Shown here piece after piece: positions 3,486 to 61,986 of a stretch of DNA of 64,000 nt. Source of the stretch: an uncultured Candidatus Saccharibacteria bacterium (GTDB lineage: Bacteria; Patescibacteriota; Saccharimonadia; Saccharimonadales; CAYLGV01); NCBI GenBank assembly GCA_964394925.1, contig CAYMZG010000001.1:131656-195655 (forward strand), in the 5' to 3' direction. The translations under genes were made by a program, and so were the position numbers. How positions within the stretch are numbered: position 1 is the first letter of the stretch; the number at the start of each line of letters is the position of its first letter. The notes beneath the pieces are model-generated. The model was not told the origin of the DNA. It was given only the letters and a program-made list of their open reading frames with translations, and ran no database searches.

Positions 3486-4763
<1,278 letters not shown>

Positions 4764-12921: not shown

Positions 12922-14916
12922 TTAGTACAGTTTTGTGTGGGACAAGCCGCCCCACTCAACAACAGTGAAGCCATCACGCCTATCAAGCTTCTGGAGCTTT
13001 TGGGCTGGTAGTGATATTAGCTGGTCGAAGCCATCCATGTCGAGGAAAACTCGGAAAACAGTCGTTGGCTTTGGTTTCACAGAGAGTGGCGCCAAACGAT
13101 TGATTTCATTAGTACTAAACCACGTCAGTCGCACATATGGCTTGTTGGGGATTCGGCTAGCCCAGTAATCCATAAAGTCTTGGGTTTCTTGGGTATTCAG
13201 GCCCTGGGCCAACAACTGGCTGCGCATAGTCGCTTCTGCTTGTGATCGAGGCACGACTGTTCCGCTCGCAATACCGGGATACGTTCCCCAGCCTGGGCCC
13301 TCCCAGAACAGTGAACCGTATGTCTTGCCACCCATTGTTAGTTGGCCATTTGGATTTGCCAGAACAGTCCAACCCTTCTTGGCATCGTACAACGGATCTG
13401 ACACCTTCACATCCGCCCCTACACGAACCGTAACATTGGTTGGCACTGTTGGATAGAGGTATACGACGGGCTTGGCGCAGCCACCTGCGGGAGCATATTT
13501 ATCTGAAGAGAGGATAAACCACTCACCATTTTTAGATTTTGCAGCAAAAACAGCATGATCCCGCATAAATTCATCAATTGTGACATTTTTGTATGGGAAA
13601 GTGGTGTCGTCTTTGTAGAATTCTTTGGTCTCATTGTAGGCTTTTTGCACAAGAGTATTGTTCTTGTCCTTAAAGTCATACAACGTTATGCCGTCAGTGG
13701 TTTTGCCAGCAGCAACAAGGTCAGATTCAGTTACCGCGTTTCCAATGCTAATACTGTTGGACGTAGATCCACAACCACGTACGATTCCTAAATATTTCTC
13801 ATCACTTTTATATCCATTGTTCCATATCGTTTCTTTGTAACTTGATCCTACTGGACGATACATCAACGAAACTCGTGTTTTGATGGGAAGTACTACGTTG
13901 TATGAAAGTGCCGTTAACTTCGTGTCGTTGTATGCTATTCGCTTTTCGAATAGCTCGCTGCCGCCAAGTTTTTTAACACTTTTTTCAGTGTTTTTGCTGT
14001 TATTATCCGTATTGGTCGGTTTCTGATAATCTGGATTTCCGTCAGACGGTTCGCCCAAATATGCAATATCGTAAGTGAGCACCTCGCCATTATCGAGTGT
14101 TAATTTTTGAGGCACACTTAGTGAGTCGTAGTGTGTGTTTTGGTCAATCTTAATTGTCGATTTTATGTCTGCGGAATCTTTGTTGAAGGTTGTTTTTACA
14201 TTTGCATTAGGTTGCACAATATAGCTAATGGTGCCGTCGGGAGCCTTCTCAAATAGGTCCGTCTCTGTAATCACCTCGTGTTTTTGCCTTGCAATAATGA
14301 CATTACTGCCACGCTTACCTATTTCGAAATATTTGATGTTAAAGTCTGCTTCGTTCCCTGTTGTCGTTGAAAAGCCTTGTGAGGGTAACGTCTTGTATGC
14401 GGCATACCATGTCTCACCTGTCGTTGGTTGCATGAATCGTTGAAGTTGTGGGTCTGTTGCGGCAGTTTTTTGTTCTTCTTTAGATTTGGCGGTTGTTTGA
14501 GCCTTGCCTGACTCGCCAGATGGATTTGGGGTTGTTTTCTTAGACTTATAGTAGGCATAAGCACCACCGGCAGCCGCTAATAGTAATAAAACAACGAGAG
14601 CAATAAACAACTTTTTTTGAGACTTCTTTCCAGTCACGGAGCCATTGGGCTGAGCTGGGGCAGCCTGGGCAGATACCGGAGCAACGGAATCTGTTGGCAC
14701 ATCACTAGTTGGTTCACTTTCGGCCGTAGTAACCTCAGTCGTTGCCGCAGAATCAGCATTTGGTTCAAAAACCTGCTCAGGTGCGGGTGGTGCAGGCACG
14801 TCGATGTTGGTATCTCCAGCTTGTTCGTCCGCAGCTGAGTCTGGAGCCCGGCCTGACACTTGATCGGTTGATTCGGGTGTTGTTGCAGCCGGCTCTTTGG
14901 TTGGTTCAGTGTCCAT
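12922..14916 (-). CDS. hypothetical membrane-anchored extracytoplasmic protein
   Basis: 664 aa. Disordered Pro/Ala/Thr/Glu-rich N-terminus, one TM (LFIALVVLLLLAAAGGAYAYY), then a large folded-looking C-terminal region. No family recognised. Confidence 0.65.
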   Translation of the reverse strand: MDTEPTKEPAATTPESTDQVSGRAPDSAADEQAGDTNIDVPAPPAPEQVFEPNADSAATTEVTTAESEPTSDVPTDSVAPVSAQAAPAQPNGSVTGKKSQKKLFIALVVLLLLAAAGGAYAYYKSKKTTPNPSGESGKAQTTAKSKEEQKTAATDPQLQRFMQPTTGETWYAAYKTLPSQGFSTTTGNEADFNIKYFEIGKRGSNVIIARQKHEVITETDLFEKAPDGTISYIVQPNANVKTTFNKDSADIKSTIKIDQNTHYDSLSVPQKLTLDNGEVLTYDIAYLGEPSDGNPDYQKPTNTDNNSKNTEKSVKKLGGSELFEKRIAYNDTKLTALSYNVVLPIKTRVSLMYRPVGSSYKETIWNNGYKSDEKYLGIVRGCGSTSNSISIGNAVTESDLVAAGKTTDGITLYDFKDKNNTLVQKAYNETKEFYKDDTTFPYKNVTIDEFMRDHAVFAAKSKNGEWFILSSDKYAPAGGCAKPVVYLYPTVPTNVTVRVGADVKVSDPLYDAKKGWTVLANPNGQLTMGGKTYGSLFWEGPGWGTYPGIASGTVVPRSQAEATMRSQLLAQGLNTQETQDFMDYWASRIPNKPYVRLTWFSTNEINRLAPLSVKPKPTTVFRVFLDMDGFDQLISLPAQKLQKLDRRDGFTVVEWGGLSHTKLY

Positions 14917-49512: not shown

Positions 49513-50253
49513 TTATTGCACACCAACGAGTTGCACTTCAAAGATAAGCACTGCATTGGGCGGAATTGGACCCTGTCCTTGGGCGCCGTAACCGACTGCA
49601 GGTGGGACAATAACCAAGCGCCTACCGCCTACCTTCATGCCAAGAACTGTCTGCTCCCAACCTGGAATAACCTGATGTGCTCCTTCAGTGAAAACAAATG
49701 GTTGTTTTTGCCCTTTGCTATCTGTTTTGGTCTGATCGAATAACGTACCATCCGTTAACCAACCGCGGTAATATACTGCTGCTTTCATGTTGTTGCCAAG
49801 CTCTGCGCCGTTACCCTTCTCGACATCAGCAAAGAGAGCATCCTTGTTGTCTTTGTATTTATCGTACTGCTTGAAGGTTGTGGGATCAAAAGCGGATGCC
49901 GCATTATTGGAGTTCGAGCTGCTGCCACTGCCTGACTGGCTATTGCTGTTGCTTCCACTAGAACTAGAATTACCTAAATTACTGGGCGTTAGTTGTCCAA
50001 GGTTATAGGCCGAGCCCGTTCCACCACTGACACTAAGACCATTGCTGCTAGAACCACTGCCCTGCCCACTGTTGAGTGACACACTATCCGATCCAGTTGA
50101 TGCGCCCAGTGTTTCACTATCCTGGTTGGCTTGGGCGAGCCTGGCCTTTTCTTGGGCATCTTTACGAAGCACCCAGAATGTTGAACCACCAATGATACCG
50201 CCGACCAGCAGCACCATCACCACCACAAACACAATTATTTTGCTTTTTGACAT
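49513..50253 (-). CDS. membrane-anchored FKBP-type peptidyl-prolyl isomerase
   Basis: N-terminal TM, Ser/Gly/Asn-rich linker, and a C-terminal FKBP domain (VYYRGWLTDGTLFD...VIPGWEQTVLGMKVGGRR...YGAQG..IPPNAVLIFEVQL). Confidence 0.85.
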   Translation of the reverse strand: MSKSKIIVFVVVMVLLVGGIIGGSTFWVLRKDAQEKARLAQANQDSETLGASTGSDSVSLNSGQGSGSSSNGLSVSGGTGSAYNLGQLTPSNLGNSSSSGSNSNSQSGSGSSSNSNNAASAFDPTTFKQYDKYKDNKDALFADVEKGNGAELGNNMKAAVYYRGWLTDGTLFDQTKTDSKGQKQPFVFTEGAHQVIPGWEQTVLGMKVGGRRLVIVPPAVGYGAQGQGPIPPNAVLIFEVQLVGVQ

Positions 50254-50374
50254 GCTTGTTTCATTGTAGGTGATTATGCTTTGTATGACAAATTGACCTT
50301 TACAGACAGTTATTAAGCTGTTTGGATCTATCAGTAAGTTTAAACAACGGTCTTTAGAGGAGTTTCATGATTCA

Positions 50375-50818
50375 TTGGCGCATGAGATAATGTCGCGAAT
50401 GGAGACCTACCAATCTAAAGCCAGTACCCTTCCCGGAACATCTTATGATGAAACCTTGCGCCTGGTCCGTCATGAGCAAAAAAAGATTGAGAACCTCACA
50501 AAGAGACAACCCTATGTGCGGTCCACATACTTTAGTAACGATAAGGTATTTATTGCTTGCTTTATGAACCACGCAATGCAAAAGTCCCGCAAAGAACGTA
50601 CTGAACGATTTAAGCTTTACAATGCTGCAATCGATCTTTTGCGCAATACAAGACATGAACCAGAGACTATTCTTAAGAAGGATCTGCCGGGTGTGGTTTT
50701 GTTTCGCTTCTACGGTGTTACAAAAGATGGTCAGAAATTTTGCGTTCAAGTAAAACAGGAGAACCGGACAGGACGTAAAGATTTCATGTCAGCATTCTTA
50801 AAGAAAAACATCCCTTAA
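50375..50818 (+). CDS. hypothetical basic protein (147 aa) in an AT-rich segment
   Basis: ORF only. Preferred over the antisense 125-aa ORF because its composition is charged and protein-like. The start is uncertain (TTG at 50375 or the ATG at 50390). Confidence 0.4.
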   Translation: MAHEIMSRMETYQSKASTLPGTSYDETLRLVRHEQKKIENLTKRQPYVRSTYFSNDKVFIACFMNHAMQKSRKERTERFKLYNAAIDLLRNTRHEPETILKKDLPGVVLFRFYGVTKDGQKFCVQVKQENRTGRKDFMSAFLKKNIP

Positions 50819-51167
50819 TACAAAAAACCCCCCGCTGTGTAGTTCGGAGACTACGGCCGAGAGCTTAATGCAGGAACAACACAGACATGTTGTTACATGA
50901 ATAATATCACAGCATTATGCTTATGTCAACATGTTTTTAAAGTATAGTCAAATATTAAGAAGTTCTGATTTGGGGATAATTTGAAAAAAACCCTTGACGA
51001 AGCATAAGCGCAATGGGTATTGAACATATATTTTCTAACGACAAAATTTACATAGATGACACTGCAAAAGTTCGCCCCTCATCTTCGAAGAAATAGCTAG
51101 ACGGCGGGTTCTACTCCGGGAAGATTATGTGAAGTACTAGGAGGAGTTATTGGGAAGGGTTGAGGTT

Positions 51168-51482
51168 TTACCCCTCATAAATGCGACGACCCCAGCGGTC
51201 ACGGCGTAGGTAACGTCGAGGTGGCCCCAGAGGCTGGCCATAGAAGAAAACAGGCGTGACTGTCACATTGTCATGTTCGTCTTCTGTGTTGGTCGGTTCT
51301 TGATTAGTAGTAACTTCTCGGGCTGAGACACCCTCAAGAGCTGTGTCGCCTGCAAAGATTGGTAACTCTACACCACGTTCAGTTAAGACATCATGTATCT
51401 GAGTCACGGCTTCAACTAGGTGGTCAGTGGCCTGTTCACCGGCCACAAAGGGAATGATTTTGTCTTTTGCATCAAATTCCAT
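51168..51482 (-). CDS. hypothetical acidic protein (104 aa)
   Basis: ORF only. Lies between the AT-rich segment and ssrA. Confidence 0.4.
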   Translation of the reverse strand: MEFDAKDKIIPFVAGEQATDHLVEAVTQIHDVLTERGVELPIFAGDTALEGVSAREVTTNQEPTNTEDEHDNVTVTPVFFYGQPLGPPRRYLRRDRWGRRIYEG

Positions 51483-51626
51483 GAGCTCAATAACCTCTCA
51501 CAAATCTTAATTAATGGTTATACTACTATTTTTTAAGGTATTTGTCAAAAAGGCGGAAATTGCTTAGGTAATGCTGTAAAAGTTCACACCCCAAATTTGA
51601 GTACAATTTACAGATTGGGAACAAAT

Positions 51627-57862: not shown

Positions 57863-60800
57863 CTATAACTTCTCGATGGGTGCGAAGGCAATATTGAGTT
57901 TTTTCGTGCCCTTACCCTTGAAGTAGATCGTGGCGTTATCGCCATCCATTTCAACAATCGTGCCCACGCCAAACAGTTGATGTCGCACGCCATCGCCTTC
58001 GTTCAGTTCCGGTACATAACGCGGTTCATCATTTTTAACAAGATTGTTAGGGCTTGGGGGTCGTGCTGGCCCACTGGTATCTGGCTTGCCGAACATACTC
58101 CCTTGGCGCGCGCCACCAGAAAAGTTATCACGTGGCATATAATCGCGCGCAAAGTTATCGTCGAAGCCAGATGCCATATGCACATCACCATCAATTTCAC
58201 TTAAGAAGCGCGACGGTGGGTTGTGTTGCACACCACCGTACAACATACGGCTCGAGGCATGTAACAAATACAATTCCTCCTTAGCGCGTGTCATTCCCAC
58301 ATAGCACAGTCGTCGCTCTTCCTCCATCTCCGCTTGGTCATACAATGCCCGAGAATGGGGGAAAATAGTCTCTTCCATGCCAATCATAAATACCACAGGG
58401 AACTCGAGCCCCTTAGCAGCATGAAGCGTCATAAGGGTGACGGCATTGCCGTCAAAATCTGCCCCATCCAAATCACTCACCAGAGAGACTTCTTCCAAAA
58501 AGCCAGACAGGCCAAATTCTTGATAGCTCTGCGCCACGCTTAATAATTCCTTGACGTTTTCTTGGCGGGCTTCACCCTGAGGTGTTTTATCGTCGAGGAA
58601 CTGCATGTAATTAAGGCGACGAATCAGGCTATCCAATAGCACGGGCAGGGCTACGCTGTCCATTTGGGCTCGGAACGTTCGAAGTAATTCACCGAGTTCG
58701 AAGAGCCCTTGCTTGGCTTTATTTTGGAGATTCGAGTGGTCTTTAACGCTCTCCAGGGCTGTTTGTAGGCTCATGTCGTTAGCTTGCTGCCAAATCGCAA
58801 AGTTCTCGAGCGACTTGGCACCGATACCACGCGTCGGCACATTCACGATGCGGTCAAAGCTCACCGTATCTCCGGGCTGATAAATCAAGCGCAGGTACGC
58901 CATGATGTCTTTGATTTCTTTGCGGTCATAGAAACGCTGGCCGCCAACAATACGGTACGGCACACCGTAACGAATAAAAGCTTCTTCAATGGCTCGACTT
59001 TGGGCATTGGTTCGATACAGCACGGCAAAGTCTTTATAACTACGGGCATTTAGGTCGGCTGCTGTCTTAACGCGCCGAATGATCGCCTCACCCTCGGCTC
59101 GCTCATTACCAACTTGCATGAGCTGGATTGGCTTGCCATTGTCGGCGTCGGTCCAGAGCTTTTTGTCGGACCGCTGACTGTTTTTGGTAATCACCGCGTG
59201 AGCAGCATCAAGGATAGCCTTGGTGCTGCGATAGTTCTGTTCAAGCTTAATAATGGTTGCTTTTGGATAATCTCGTTCAAAGTTGAGAATGTTGCGAAAA
59301 TCTGCACCTCTCCAGGAATAGATTGAGTTGTGGACCAGAACGCCATTTGCCGTGTAATTGTGAACATGTGTGATATCTAAATCGTACACCGCTCCTTTGT
59401 AATCAAGTTTATCAACACTGGTAACTTTTTCTTCAGAGATTCGATCTTTTTCACTAACGGGAACAATCATGCCGGGCAATACATGACCAGCAGGTGTGAA
59501 GGCAAATTTCTTATCTGAAATAAAGGCATGTTTAACCACAGCAATATCGGTTTTAGTGCCATTTAATGCGTCTTCCAGGAGTGCTTCTAGCTCAGCATAG
59601 TTTTGTCTAGCAACTTCTACCCTGAATGTATCGGCACGTCCTGCTCGAATACTGATACCTTTGTCTGCAAAGACTGCCAGGTCTTCTTTGTCGCTCGTAT
59701 TTATTGATAGCCTGCTCATTGCCCAGCTACCACTTGCTTGTGCTATGCGACGATCACTAAAAAAAGTAAGGTTTGCATGGACCCGCTTGATGCCATTACG
59801 CGTAGTGGCCTGTGGGCGAAAATGAGGAAATTCAACGTTTAGCCCTTGATCTGCCATTAACTCTTCTGCACGACTTACTGTATCAATGTTATCGAAGAGT
59901 GCATCGATGTATGCCTGACTCAAGCTCATCGCACGATTCTTGAATGCATGGAAGACCATCATTGGTATGCCGTACTTATATGCGAGTAGCGCCTCTTGGT
60001 AGACAGCCTCTTCACGATCTTTGCAAAGTTTTAGAACCCACATTTTCTCTGCCCGCTCTTGATTACCACGCACCCGTAGCCCAATATCATCTTTCTTGCC
60101 ATCGAATCGTGTACCTTTAGCGATCCCGATGCGATATCCTTTAGCTTTGGCATACATCAGATACACAAAATAACCTTCGGTCTTACCCCACCTAGTGAAA
60201 AGCATATGATTAGGAGTAACTGTAAGCTCCTTTCCAGATTCTGTGCGTATCTTTATGACCTCACCGTTATAATCGAAGCTTCTTGTTTTTTCGACACTAA
60301 AGCTATCTTGCTTACCAAAACCAATGGCCGATGTAACCATTTCGCCTGTTTTAATAGATTCAATTGACTTCGGCCCGCTTGCTGTCCGAACCTGACTGCC
60401 AGGTAGTAGACATTGCCAGTCGTCGCCCACAACCGCAATATTTTGCTGATCATTAGTCAGCAACTTAACCAACTTGTACTGTGCAGCGTTTGTGTCCTGA
60501 TACTCATCAATCATGATATAGCTGAACTGCTTGCGCCACTTGTTGCGGATTTCTTGGTTAGTTTGCAGGAGCTGTGCCACACGAGCAATCAAATCATCAA
60601 AGTCCAGTGCACCATTGTCTTTAAGGATTTTTTGGTACAACGGATACACCTGTGCTGCTGCTTTGTGTGTTGGGCTTGTACTTAAACCACTATACTCGGC
60701 TGGTGAGATTAATTCGTTTTTAGCGCTACTAATAAGCCCCGAAATGGTGCGTGGTGGAAAAGCCTTCTCATCGAGCATGACCTGTTTAGAGGCCTGCTTA

Positions 60801-61174
60801 ACAGCACTTAACCGATCGGCTTCATCGAAGATAACAAAGTTAGAGGGAACATGCACATGTTCACCATCCTGCCGCAAGATACGTACACAAATACTGTGAA
60901 ACGTGCCCATGAACGGCATAAAGCTGCGGTTGTCGGGGTTTTCACCAAGTAATGTCGCCACCCGTTCGCGCATCTCACGGGCCGCTTTGTTGGTAAAAGT
61001 AACGGCCAATATGTTGTACGGTGTCGCTTTGTGACTGGCAATAAGGTGGGCAATGCGGTGTGTTAACGTCTTGGTTTTGCCAGAGCCGGCGCCAGCCAAA
61101 ATAAGCAACGGTCCTTCGGTAGTTTCTACCGCACGACGCTGCTCATCGTTAAGACCCTCAAGGAGATGTTGCAT
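57863..61174 (-). CDS. pcrA: ATP-dependent DNA helicase PcrA/UvrD, interrupted by an intein (1103 aa precursor, 741 aa after splicing)
   Basis: Walker A AGAGSGKT and motif II DEYQDT. Motif III is split as VGDDWQ | intein | SIYSWRGA. The later motifs (TLHAAKGLEF, YVGMTRAK) and the C-terminal Tudor-like tail are intact. Confidence 0.9.
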   Translation of the reverse strand: MQHLLEGLNDEQRRAVETTEGPLLILAGAGSGKTKTLTHRIAHLIASHKATPYNILAVTFTNKAAREMRERVATLLGENPDNRSFMPFMGTFHSICVRILRQDGEHVHVPSNFVIFDEADRLSAVKQASKQVMLDEKAFPPRTISGLISSAKNELISPAEYSGLSTSPTHKAAAQVYPLYQKILKDNGALDFDDLIARVAQLLQTNQEIRNKWRKQFSYIMIDEYQDTNAAQYKLVKLLTNDQQNIAVVGDDWQCLLPGSQVRTASGPKSIESIKTGEMVTSAIGFGKQDSFSVEKTRSFDYNGEVIKIRTESGKELTVTPNHMLFTRWGKTEGYFVYLMYAKAKGYRIGIAKGTRFDGKKDDIGLRVRGNQERAEKMWVLKLCKDREEAVYQEALLAYKYGIPMMVFHAFKNRAMSLSQAYIDALFDNIDTVSRAEELMADQGLNVEFPHFRPQATTRNGIKRVHANLTFFSDRRIAQASGSWAMSRLSINTSDKEDLAVFADKGISIRAGRADTFRVEVARQNYAELEALLEDALNGTKTDIAVVKHAFISDKKFAFTPAGHVLPGMIVPVSEKDRISEEKVTSVDKLDYKGAVYDLDITHVHNYTANGVLVHNSIYSWRGADFRNILNFERDYPKATIIKLEQNYRSTKAILDAAHAVITKNSQRSDKKLWTDADNGKPIQLMQVGNERAEGEAIIRRVKTAADLNARSYKDFAVLYRTNAQSRAIEEAFIRYGVPYRIVGGQRFYDRKEIKDIMAYLRLIYQPGDTVSFDRIVNVPTRGIGAKSLENFAIWQQANDMSLQTALESVKDHSNLQNKAKQGLFELGELLRTFRAQMDSVALPVLLDSLIRRLNYMQFLDDKTPQGEARQENVKELLSVAQSYQEFGLSGFLEEVSLVSDLDGADFDGNAVTLMTLHAAKGLEFPVVFMIGMEETIFPHSRALYDQAEMEEERRLCYVGMTRAKEELYLLHASSRMLYGGVQHNPPSRFLSEIDGDVHMASGFDDNFARDYMPRDNFSGGARQGSMFGKPDTSGPARPPSPNNLVKNDEPRYVPELNEGDGVRHQLFGVGTIVEMDGDNATIYFKGKGTKKLNIAFAPIEKL
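59327..60412 (-). mobile_element. intein (362 aa, residues 255-616 of the helicase precursor)
   Basis: The first residue is Cys (TGT at 60412..60410; CLLPGSQV is block A). Block B is TVTPNHMLF. The C-terminal blocks are AVYDLDITHVHNYTANGVLVHN, followed by +1 Ser (AAC at 59329..59327, TCA at 59326..59324). Removing it restores the canonical motif III VGDDWQSIYSWRGA. Confidence 0.9.
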
Positions 61175-61218: not shown

Positions 61219-61986
61219 TTAGTTTTTGATCAGCTGGAACGGTACGTCGAATCCAACCTTAAGTATTTTGGCATCGATCGCTATATACAGCCCGATCAGC
61301 ACGATCAGTAATACCAGTGACACAAGTGCTATACGGTTATTGCGACGACGGGCTACTTGTCCCGTTTTTACAAAATATTTCTTCTCATCGATCAATTTTT
61401 GATAGTGTTCACGTTTGGCGGTTTCTTGTTCGGCATCTTCTTCATTCTTTTTCTTTGCCGAAGGCGCTTGATTAATGACCGCGTCCATCTCAGCAACGTC
61501 TGATGTGGCGTCTGTTTTCTTTTTGTCATTTTTTGCAGCTTTATCATCATTTTCTGCATTTGCTATAGTCTTAGACGATTCAGCTGATACTTTGGTGTCT
61601 GCAGATTTCTTGGTTTCTTCAGAGTTCGTTGATGCTTCATCAGAGGTGGTCGAGGGGTCCTTTTCAACTACTAACGGCTTATCTTGTCCCTTGTCGTTAG
61701 CTGAGTCTGCTTCGCTGGTGGTTTTCTTATTCTCGGAAACGCTATTTTCCGGGCTATCTTTCAAGGGCTTAACAACCTTTTCGCCCGATGTTGGTGCGCT
61801 TTTTGGCTCATTGCCAGTTTTAGTGGTGGTTTCAAACTCAGAGATTTCTTCCGGTTTGACCATTGGGTCTTGAATCATTGGACGATGTGACACAATAACA
61901 GGCCGAGCTGATGCATCTGCCGCCACTTTACCGGGCTTAGATACATCCATAGCCTTCTGGTCATCTTTTGAAACATCATTTGCCAT
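61219..61986 (-). CDS. hypothetical Lys/Asp/Ser-rich protein with a C-terminal TM anchor
   Basis: 255 aa. Low-complexity N-terminal 210 aa, then NRIALVSLVLLIVLIGLYIAI. Overlaps tpiA by 11 nt. Confidence 0.55.
   Translation of the reverse strand: MANDVSKDDQKAMDVSKPGKVAADASARPVIVSHRPMIQDPMVKPEEISEFETTTKTGNEPKSAPTSGEKVVKPLKDSPENSVSENKKTTSEADSANDKGQDKPLVVEKDPSTTSDEASTNSEETKKSADTKVSAESSKTIANAENDDKAAKNDKKKTDATSDVAEMDAVINQAPSAKKKNEEDAEQETAKREHYQKLIDEKKYFVKTGQVARRRNNRIALVSLVLLIVLIGLYIAIDAKILKVGFDVPFQLIKN

Follow-up and report, generated by a model that had tools for sequence, protein, structure and literature searches.

A motif III intein in a Saccharibacteria PcrA-like helicase carries a nested domain of a widespread family, possibly a divergent GIY-YIG nuclease

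We examined a 64,000-nt stretch of the genome of a Candidatus Saccharibacteria bacterium (contig CAYMZG010000001.1, positions 131,656 to 195,655 of the forward strand; assembly GCA_964394925.1), here called the window, in which the open reading frame (ORF) for a PcrA/UvrD-type helicase is interrupted by an intein (Table 1). Helicases of this type act in replication restart and DNA repair. The extein sequences match the Pfam families UvrD-helicase (1.1e-86), UvrD_C (5.9e-73) and PcrA_UvrD_tudor. The NCBIfam equivalog model TIGR01073 (pcrA) aligns with the precursor as two separate segments, interrupted precisely at residues 255/616 (851.6 bits), and with the protein from which the intein has been removed in silico in a single stretch, residues 4-739 on model positions 1-725 of 725 (876.4 bits). 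TIGR01073 is the best model for the spliced helicase, with the uvrD and rep models scoring lower, yet its score lies just below the cut-off of 911.2. For this reason we name the host protein, which by these profile matches is a superfamily 1A (SF1A) helicase, PcrA-like.

The intein is inserted in frame between Gln254 and the following Ser of the catalytic motif III of superfamily 1 (SF1) helicases (GDxxQ/SIYxWRGA; here and below, a slash within a sequence marks a splice junction). Its Cys1 codon (precursor residue 255) occupies 60410-60412 and its terminal Asn codon (residue 616) 59327-59329, and its removal in silico gives a 741-aa product reading ...NIAVVGDDWQ/SIYSWRGADF.... A preliminary description of this DNA had placed a full-length intein of 362 aa at precursor residues 255-616, inside motif III, with Cys1, the block B motif TPNH, a penultimate His-Asn and Ser at +1, and had held that excision recreates the helicase motif. 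Translation agrees with those coordinates to the base, every one of the named hallmarks is present, and the in-frame junction at Gln254/Ser does lie within motif III, where excision rebuilds VGDDWQ/SIYSWRGA and lets TIGR01073 match end to end. The term full-length is apt as well, given a nested domain of ~220 aa (intein residues ~78-294) between splicing blocks B and F. No second intein copy was found within the 64-kb window, and the listed ORFs of 80 aa or more include none that lies antisense or out of frame within the intein.

Table 1. Features of the interrupted pcrA/uvrD gene, in window coordinates
Feature	Coordinates	Strand	Basis
pcrA/uvrD precursor ORF, intein included, 1103 aa	57863..61174	-	stop codon 57863-57865; Pfam, NCBIfam
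N-extein, residues 1-254: motifs Q, I, Ia, II and first half of motif III, ending ...VVGDDWQ	60413..61174	-	translation, Pfam, tblastn
Class 1 intein, 362 aa, precursor residues 255-616: Cys1...His-Asn362, then Ser+1	59327..60412	-	translation, Pfam, NCBIfam, AlphaFold2, Foldseek
N-terminal splicing (Hint) lobe, intein aa 1-77: block A (C1), block B (T66-P-N-H69)	60182..60412	-	TIGR01445 residues 1-73; alignment A2; AlphaFold2 beta strands
Nested-domain core, intein aa 78-199, candidate divergent GIY-YIG/T5orf172-like nuclease	59816..60181	-	family conservation, AlphaFold2 topology, weak profile and structure matches
Nested-domain C-terminal alpha/beta lobe, intein aa 200-294, candidate DNA-binding, long form only	59531..59815	-	AlphaFold2 secondary structure, weak Foldseek matches
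C-terminal splicing lobe, intein aa 295-362, blocks F and G (VYDLDITHVHNYTANGVLVHN)	59327..59530	-	phmmer, TIGR01443
C-extein, residues 617-1103, from SIYSWRGADF (second half of motif III) through the C-terminal tudor domain	57863..59326	-	translation, Pfam, tblastn

The class 1 residues C1, T66-P-N-H69, the terminal VLVH361-N362 and S+1 are all found in the translation. In an alignment of ten homologous inteins (A2), T66 and H69 are invariant and C1 nearly so, and most representative homologs with a readable C-terminal junction have HN/[SC] at that position. The intein matches Pfam Intein_splicing (PF14890; E 7.7e-17, 62 bits against a cut-off of 35.8), TIGR01445 intein_Nterm (35.9 against 24.5) and TIGR01443 intein_Cterm (20.3 against 15.6), and phmmer pairs its residues 295-362 with the Pho RadA intein and the Spl DnaX mini-intein. 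The whole intein was modeled by AlphaFold2 (AF2) with a mean predicted local distance difference test score of 88.7 and a predicted template modeling score of 0.85. All 31 PDB matches of this model at E<=1e-3 in Foldseek are inteins or Hint domains, including the Mtu RecA mini-intein (template modeling score 0.83, root-mean-square deviation 4.2), Npu DnaB (0.80) and the hedgehog Hint domain (0.80). As modeled, the splicing domain has the Hint fold, and since the structural alignments extend over ~370 columns, the extra domain would sit at the canonical endonuclease insertion point of that fold. Canonical LAGLIDADG inteins (PI-SceI, PI-PfuI, PI-TkoII) and mini-inteins (Mtu RecA, Npu DnaB) share with the window intein the Hint fold and blocks A, B, F and G, and the LAGLIDADG inteins also have their nested domain at the same place in the fold; the nested domain of the window intein differs from theirs in having no LAGLIDADG motifs and a different order of secondary structures. 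The identity of the intein and its insertion site are confirmed, far beyond chance.

According to PcrA mutagenesis reportedly carried out by Dillingham et al. (1999), motif III couples ATP hydrolysis to DNA translocation. Because the insertion parts Gln254 from the S-I-Y-S-W-R of this motif, the precursor is expected to be inactive as a helicase and to need splicing. Splicing activity is predicted here from the conserved residues and would follow the standard class 1 pathway. After translation, Cys1 would undergo an N-S acyl shift; Ser+1 would attack the thioester, and the N-extein would be moved by transesterification; Asn362 would then cyclize, helped by His361, the block B Thr and His and block F residues; and an O-N shift would join the exteins, yielding the 741-aa helicase with an intact VGDDWQSIYSWRGA motif and the free 362-aa intein. 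The interrupted precursor is the window's only copy of a PcrA-like helicase, whose activity would depend on this reaction, and annotation pipelines may mislabel or truncate it.

The nested domain was searched both as the window copy and as family profiles, and neither found a match in Pfam, NCBIfam, PHROGs or PDB sequences. An exhaustive hidden Markov model search with a 10-sequence domain profile against 1.84 billion cluster representatives found 1815 representatives at E<=1e-3, 1307 at E<=1e-10 and 188 at E<=1e-30; word-indexed protein searches under-reported the family, with 11 and 4 matches. Most of the best 150 are proteins of ~1000-1100 aa in which the domain lies at ~330-540 and the C-terminal junction reads HN/[SC]IYxWRGA, and by this size, domain position and junction we identify them as UvrD/PcrA helicases bearing this intein. 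The remaining members include multi-intein SF1 helicases, short-form inteins (with the core of the nested domain only) at other sites, and an intein in ThyX (P0011). Conservation was measured over 46 members chosen at <45% mutual identity. Eight residues are invariant among them (Y84, M86, R94, G96, R115, W125, E140 and P196) and six nearly so (L85, E119, A136, G148, P150 and F154), within the family motif Y-x-V-Y-L-M-x7-[YFW]-R-[IV]-G-x-T ... R-x3-E-x-A-D-x2-W-[IV]-L ... A-x3-E-x6-Y-G-[IL]-P-x3-F ... P-H. In the AF2 model the core consists of beta strands 81-88 and 92-99, a small hairpin, helix 111-119, strand 123-130, helix 133-147 and two more helices, and a second alpha/beta lobe occupies 205-296. 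This C-terminal lobe is absent from short-form inteins. It has weak Foldseek similarity to the C-terminal DNA-binding domain of T4 MotA (prob 0.93-0.95) and to the eIF1/SUI1 fold, and is a candidate DNA-binding lobe.

The family extends to cultured phages. A tblastn search of 50,697 phage records found the nested domain in 64, from Escherichia phages of the phi92/Justusliebigvirus group, the Bacillus phages SPO1, CampHawk and Goe2, Campylobacter-labeled phages and Streptococcus suis prophages. GenBank labels PaulScherrer bas60_0082 as an 'intein-containing UvrD / Rep family helicase precursor', marks its intein as a mat_peptide and also annotates the intein of SPO1 gp34.33; the CampHawk helicase intein is mentioned in PMC3868849. 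In the translated loci, the junctions of phi92 (VVGDEFQ/CVSEN...ILSHN/CIYQFRGS) and SPO1 (LVGDDDQ/CQPAG...LVTHN/SMYSFRGA) fall at the same motif III site as in the window. The phage UvrD-like helicase inteins (SPO1 gp34.33, CampHawk, phi92 gp198 and PaulScherrer bas60_0082) thus share with the window intein the site, GDxxQ/C...HN/[SC][IM]YxFRG, together with the class 1 residues and a nested domain of the same family (in tblastn, the E. coli phages match at E 1e-11 and SPO1 at 8e-4) in which the core motif VYLM...RVG...R...W[IV]L...E...YGI recurs. The differences are that the nested domain is only 26-30% identical, that the hosts are phage helicases rather than a chromosomal PcrA, that several phage inteins have Cys+1 where the window has Ser+1, and that the SPO1 intein is of the short form, without the C-terminal alpha/beta lobe, whereas the window intein is of the long form.

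Comparison with known UvrD/PcrA intein alleles, which the preliminary description had proposed along with a survey of relatives, therefore finds the same motif III site annotated in SPO1, CampHawk, phi92 and PaulScherrer, in addition to the UvrD inteins listed in PMC4760082. In that study, Novikova et al. (2016) recorded 16 inteins in the P-loop ATPase domain of COG0210 UvrD proteins, from Acidobacteria, Actinobacteria, Deinococcus-Thermus, Firmicutes and Proteobacteria and none from Saccharibacteria or the candidate phyla radiation (CPR) (PMC4760082); these inteins resemble that of the window in host protein and in the domain that they interrupt. The window element is a divergent chromosomal member of an already-known helicase motif III intein family. 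From the profile searches and translated junctions, its nested domain is a member of a widespread, uncharacterized family that shares this helicase site from CPR bacteria to cultured phages.

Some members of the nested-domain family occupy other settings. Giant SF1 helicases of 1800-2500 aa (P0027, P0056, P0063, P0066, P0133 and P0151), encoded on metagenomic contigs as long as 188 kb, contain two or three inteins with a nested domain of this family, at sites that by motif reading are motif II (DE[AC]QDLNK/C), motif III (GDxxQ/C...HN/SIY) and motif V (GTCH/CSPPDEPV...VVHN/STKG). P0063 and P0066 have a further, different P-loop intein (GSGK/C) without the nested domain. The short form, besides its presence in the ThyX thymidylate synthase intein, was found in adenine DNA methyltransferase inteins of Streptococcus suis prophages (L091), and the module therefore travels between unrelated host genes. 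The Campylobacter-labeled carriers are four 'Campylobacter phage' records (A150, A145, C3 and A110a; MG065639.1, our L092, and related entries), UNVERIFIED and unannotated, that are classed as Justusliebigvirus; since their helicase-intein region is nearly identical in protein to that of the E. coli phage phi92 across the stretch examined, the host label looks doubtful.

For the survey of relatives, the spliced extein was searched against 185,579 species-representative genomes and the best 80 loci were taken, mostly from Saccharibacteria/Patescibacteria metagenome-assembled genomes and 50-71% identical to the spliced extein. The gene neighborhood PGK-TPI-hypothetical-PcrA-G5 protein is conserved across these loci, which marks them as true orthologs. 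In tblastn searches, the intein has no match in any of the 80, and the N-extein and C-extein matches abut to the base in all of them (for example at 3762/3763 in L009), with the N-extein 73-78% identical and its match ending exactly at the junction. Motif inspection found a continuous, intein-less motif III, such as VGDDWQSIYSWRGADF, in 79 of the 80 loci (the pattern was not found in L051). One of the six peptide patterns with which the genomes were scanned (DWQSIYSW) crosses the junction, so the choice of loci is biased toward intein-less alleles. The intein is present in other Saccharibacteria (P0001, P0002, P0004, P0007, P0012 and others). In the N-extein identity matrix, the nearest neighbor of every intein-containing Saccharibacteria allele is an intein-less one: P0001 pairs with L052 (87%), P0012 with L011 (87%), P0007 with L024 (85%), and the window allele with L012, L081 and L018 (78%). 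The closest inteins are 57-62% identical to that of the window, and the corresponding exteins 68-77%. In base composition, the GC content of the intein, 0.439, is at the 2.9th percentile of 1086-bp windows (the mean of the whole window is 0.49), and its GC content at third codon positions (GC3) is 0.378, against 0.508 and 0.533 in the exteins. Absence from the nearest orthologs, interleaved alleles and deviating composition together argue for a mobile element with repeated gain and loss. These comparisons indicate that the intein is an acquired, patchily distributed mobile element, not an ancient fixed feature.

One intein-less ortholog, L053, has Gly rather than Ser or Cys at the would-be +1 position (VGDDSQGIYSWRGA), so this site would be unable to support splicing if invaded. 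Among ten metagenomic UvrD homologs from the word-indexed search (P0001-P0010), nine end prematurely, either inside the intein or no more than 11 residues from it, including genes at the ends of 8-10 kb contigs (P0002, P0006 and P0007). Assemblies seem to break at the intein, and the cause could be coexisting alleles with and without it, or several related inteins, in one sample. Given the patchy distribution, the locus can serve to tell strains apart and is likely to break contigs when Saccharibacteria metagenomes are assembled.

The conservation of the nested domain, combined with the patchy distribution of the element that carries it, suggests that the domain, whatever its fold, is very probably a functional homing module. 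Endonuclease classes recorded inside inteins are LAGLIDADG, HNH and rare Vsr-like and endonuclease VII-like cases. A LAGLIDADG identity was rejected: no LAGLIDADG/Hom_end Pfam match was found at E<=10 in sets of 10 and 46 family members, the domain starts in the AF2 model with a beta hairpin and not a LAGLIDADG helix, and Foldseek matches to that class appear only at E >= 0.07. An HNH identity was likewise set aside, with no HNH Pfam match in the window copy or in the 10 and 46 members and with no invariant His or Asn in the core. The conserved E, D, E and K raised a PD-(D/E)XK or Vsr-like candidate, which was rejected by reasoning from the AF2 model, where these residues lie in helices and not in the beta2/beta3 strands. 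Three points go beyond the preliminary description: inteins of this family had already been annotated at this site in cultured phages, the nested domain falls in an uncharacterized family and is neither a LAGLIDADG nor an HNH endonuclease, and the element is missing from all 80 nearest orthologs.

In a Pfam scan of the 46 members at E<=10, just one family, PF01541 GIY-YIG, is matched by more than one member (3/46; the best match has E 5.5e-4 and 20.6 bits, where the cut-off is 22.6), and T5orf172, which we take to belong to the same Pfam clan, was matched by one further member (E 0.063). In T5orf172, a K-I-G motif stands at the 'YIG' position. The four matches are collinear and near full length, covering protein positions 2-72 and running from profile position 1-2 to 68-73. 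When the domain model was compared with BFVD by Foldseek, the first three matches were true homologs (phage helicase and methyltransferase inteins), and 15 of the 47 listed after them are GIY-YIG, Seg or NUMOD homing endonucleases (E 0.008-0.3). A 172-sequence core profile was aligned by hhalign with the GIY-YIG domains of E. coli UvrC, YhbQ and Cho (NC_000913.3), giving P values of 0.049, 0.059 and 0.093, respectively. Only with UvrC are the motifs in register, VY84 falling on VY19, R94-I-G96 on Y29-V-G and E140 on the helix-2 Glu; E140 has no partner in the YhbQ alignment, and a long gap interrupts that with Cho. In the family, V-Y84-L-M and [YFW]-R94-[IV]-G96 are 10 residues apart and contain the invariant Y84, R94 and G96, while the equally invariant R115 and E140 are placed by AF2 in helices 111-119 and 133-147. 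E140 is put by hhalign on the Glu of both UvrC (P 0.049) and I-TevI (P 0.32), and the predicted order of the core, beta-beta-alpha-beta-alpha, matches that of GIY-YIG. These observations tip the balance slightly toward a core that is a very divergent, though unproven, member of the GIY-YIG/T5orf172 superfamily, with a predicted nuclease activity.

The window domain resembles I-TevI, Seg and T5orf172-type nucleases (PMC10448857) in having a small N-terminal core, the putative nuclease, followed by a putative DNA-binding part, in its Tyr, Arg and Glu at motif-compatible positions and in its subthreshold Pfam, Foldseek and hhalign similarity. It is unlike GIY-YIG homing endonucleases in being fused in frame inside an intein, in its beta hairpin before helix 1, in having Arg for the Tyr of 'YIG' and in being without NUMOD, zinc-finger or HTH modules.

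Several results weigh against a GIY-YIG assignment. The best GIY-YIG Pfam score is under the gathering cut-off, none of the GIY-YIG evidence reaches a conventional threshold, and the window copy of the nested domain has no Pfam match of any kind. Against a 9-sequence I-TevI-like alignment built from phage records (the I-TevI query was 100% identical to T4-like phages), hhalign gave P = 0.32, and against I-TevI alone it gave nothing. No GIY-YIG structure is among the best 50 PDB matches listed by Foldseek for the domain model, which instead include weak matches to LAGLIDADG proteins, the MotA C-terminal domain and eIF1. Searches of PDB sequences with the intein, with the profiles A1 and A3 and with the most GIY-YIG-like member returned splicing blocks or random matches only, and a PHROGs scan of the 46 members gave nothing interpretable for the nested domain. 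The second Tyr of the GIY-YIG motif is replaced by the invariant Arg, and a counterpart of the conserved GIY-YIG Asn was not identified in the core.

These results also support an alternative in which the intein is real and its nested domain, still engaged in homing, has a fold new to Pfam and the PDB and serves as a nuclease or a DNA-binding module. With no significant model or structure match, a P of 0.32 against the I-TevI family, and leading PDB Foldseek matches that mix LAGLIDADG, MotA and eIF1 folds, all at E > 0.06, this explanation deserves serious consideration, and we nonetheless find it less convincing than a GIY-YIG relationship: the sole recurring weak signals all point toward the GIY-YIG clan, the Pfam and UvrC matches are collinear with the motifs, and the GIY-YIG fold accords with both the invariant Tyr, Arg and Glu residues and the beta-beta-alpha-beta-alpha order of the core.

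Domestication of the intein as a conditional switch is improbable. Splicing, and with it PcrA activity, would then respond to stress, and the nested domain would be regulatory rather than homing; regulatory roles have been proposed for inteins clustered in the ATPase motifs of replication and repair proteins (PMC4760082), and very distantly related hosts have inteins at this one site. The scattered occurrence of the intein in close relatives and its unusual GC3 instead bear the signature of a selfish mobile element, a sensor feature such as a redox Cys pair was not found in the sequence, and a switch would in any case be compatible with homing. Even less credit can be given to a decayed or inactive nested domain, for example a degenerate LAGLIDADG remnant, in an immobile intein inherited only vertically. 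The repeated, very weak LAGLIDADG matches in Foldseek (E 0.07-0.5, prob < 0.5) would fit such a remnant, as would the rough agreement between intein and extein identity among homologs; it is opposed by the lack of any LAGLIDADG or HNH Pfam match at E <= 10 in the 46 members and the beta-hairpin start, by strict conservation of polar residues over >1,300 clusters, which argues for purifying selection on function, and by the element's absence from the 80 nearest orthologs with alleles of both kinds interleaved. An assembly or chimera artifact is scarcely conceivable: nothing specific favors it beyond the several metagenomic homologs truncated inside the intein, where assemblers struggle, and the insertion is in frame, is bounded by canonical splice residues, restores a universally conserved motif to the residue when removed and has homologs at this site both in finished cultured-phage genomes and in many assemblies made independently.

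Taken together, the explanation that we consider likely is a mobile, cis-splicing class 1 intein in motif III of a PcrA-like helicase, with a nested domain that is a divergent GIY-YIG/T5orf172 homing nuclease equipped with a DNA-binding lobe. The nested domain, at the usual endonuclease position, would most likely be the homing nuclease. Within its core, V-Y84-L-M would form the 'GIY' strand and R94-I-G96 the 'YIG' strand, with R115 as the Arg of helix 1 and E140 as the Glu of helix 2, and the alpha/beta lobe would provide the binding to target DNA. Cleavage of pcrA alleles that lack the intein would take place near GTGGGCGACGACTGGCAA/TCAATCTATTCCTGGAGA, where the intein-less target around the junction would read GCGGTTGTGGGCGACGACTGGCAA/TCAATCTATTCCTGGAGAGGTGCA, and recombinational repair would copy the intein in.

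Dunin-Horkawicz et al. (2006) described GIY-YIG domains in group I introns and free-standing genes, 'not ... in inteins' (PMC1564403), and they are also stated not to occur within inteins in PMC2677866; in the open-access literature searched, we found no report of a GIY-YIG or T5orf172 domain in an intein. The nearest parallel is offered by the 'fractured genes' of Dassa et al. (2009), in which split inteins flank a free-standing GIY-YIG or Vsr-like endonuclease gene, a layout proposed there as a route by which inteins gain new endonuclease domains (PMC2677866). Fractured genes and the window locus alike combine intein splicing halves with a non-LAGLIDADG, non-HNH nuclease, which in the window is a candidate; the window intein, unlike the split arrangement, is contiguous and holds its candidate nuclease in one polypeptide. 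If the nested domain is indeed GIY-YIG, a further endonuclease class would join those inside inteins, repeated capture of free-standing nucleases by inteins would gain support, and a new scaffold of sequence-specific nucleases would be open to study in cultured phages of E. coli and B. subtilis. We propose tentatively, and with slightly less than even confidence, that there is a large family of intein-borne, in-frame GIY-YIG/T5orf172 homing endonucleases, of ~1,800 clusters at 50% identity, undescribed in the literature searched. With the same reserve, this family may target motifs II, III and V of SF1 helicases, ThyX and phage DNA methyltransferases, and its SPO1 and phi92 members would be tractable.

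Elsewhere in the window, the lowest-GC 1-kb windows (0.41-0.42) are in stretches at ~13400-14600 and ~50050-51600. One of these lies within a Ser/Asn/Thr-rich, 664-aa secreted-type protein, and the other covers an FKBP-like protein in its low-complexity N-terminal part, together with a basic ORF of 147 aa that an antisense ORF overlaps; the interval 50375-50818 (+) is listed with these stretches. The gene between pcrA and TPI (61219-61986, - strand) encodes a Lys/Glu/Ser-rich, low-complexity protein of 255 aa with a single C-terminal hydrophobic helix, and its product is weakly conserved, with a short N-terminal tblastn match in 23 of the 80 related loci.

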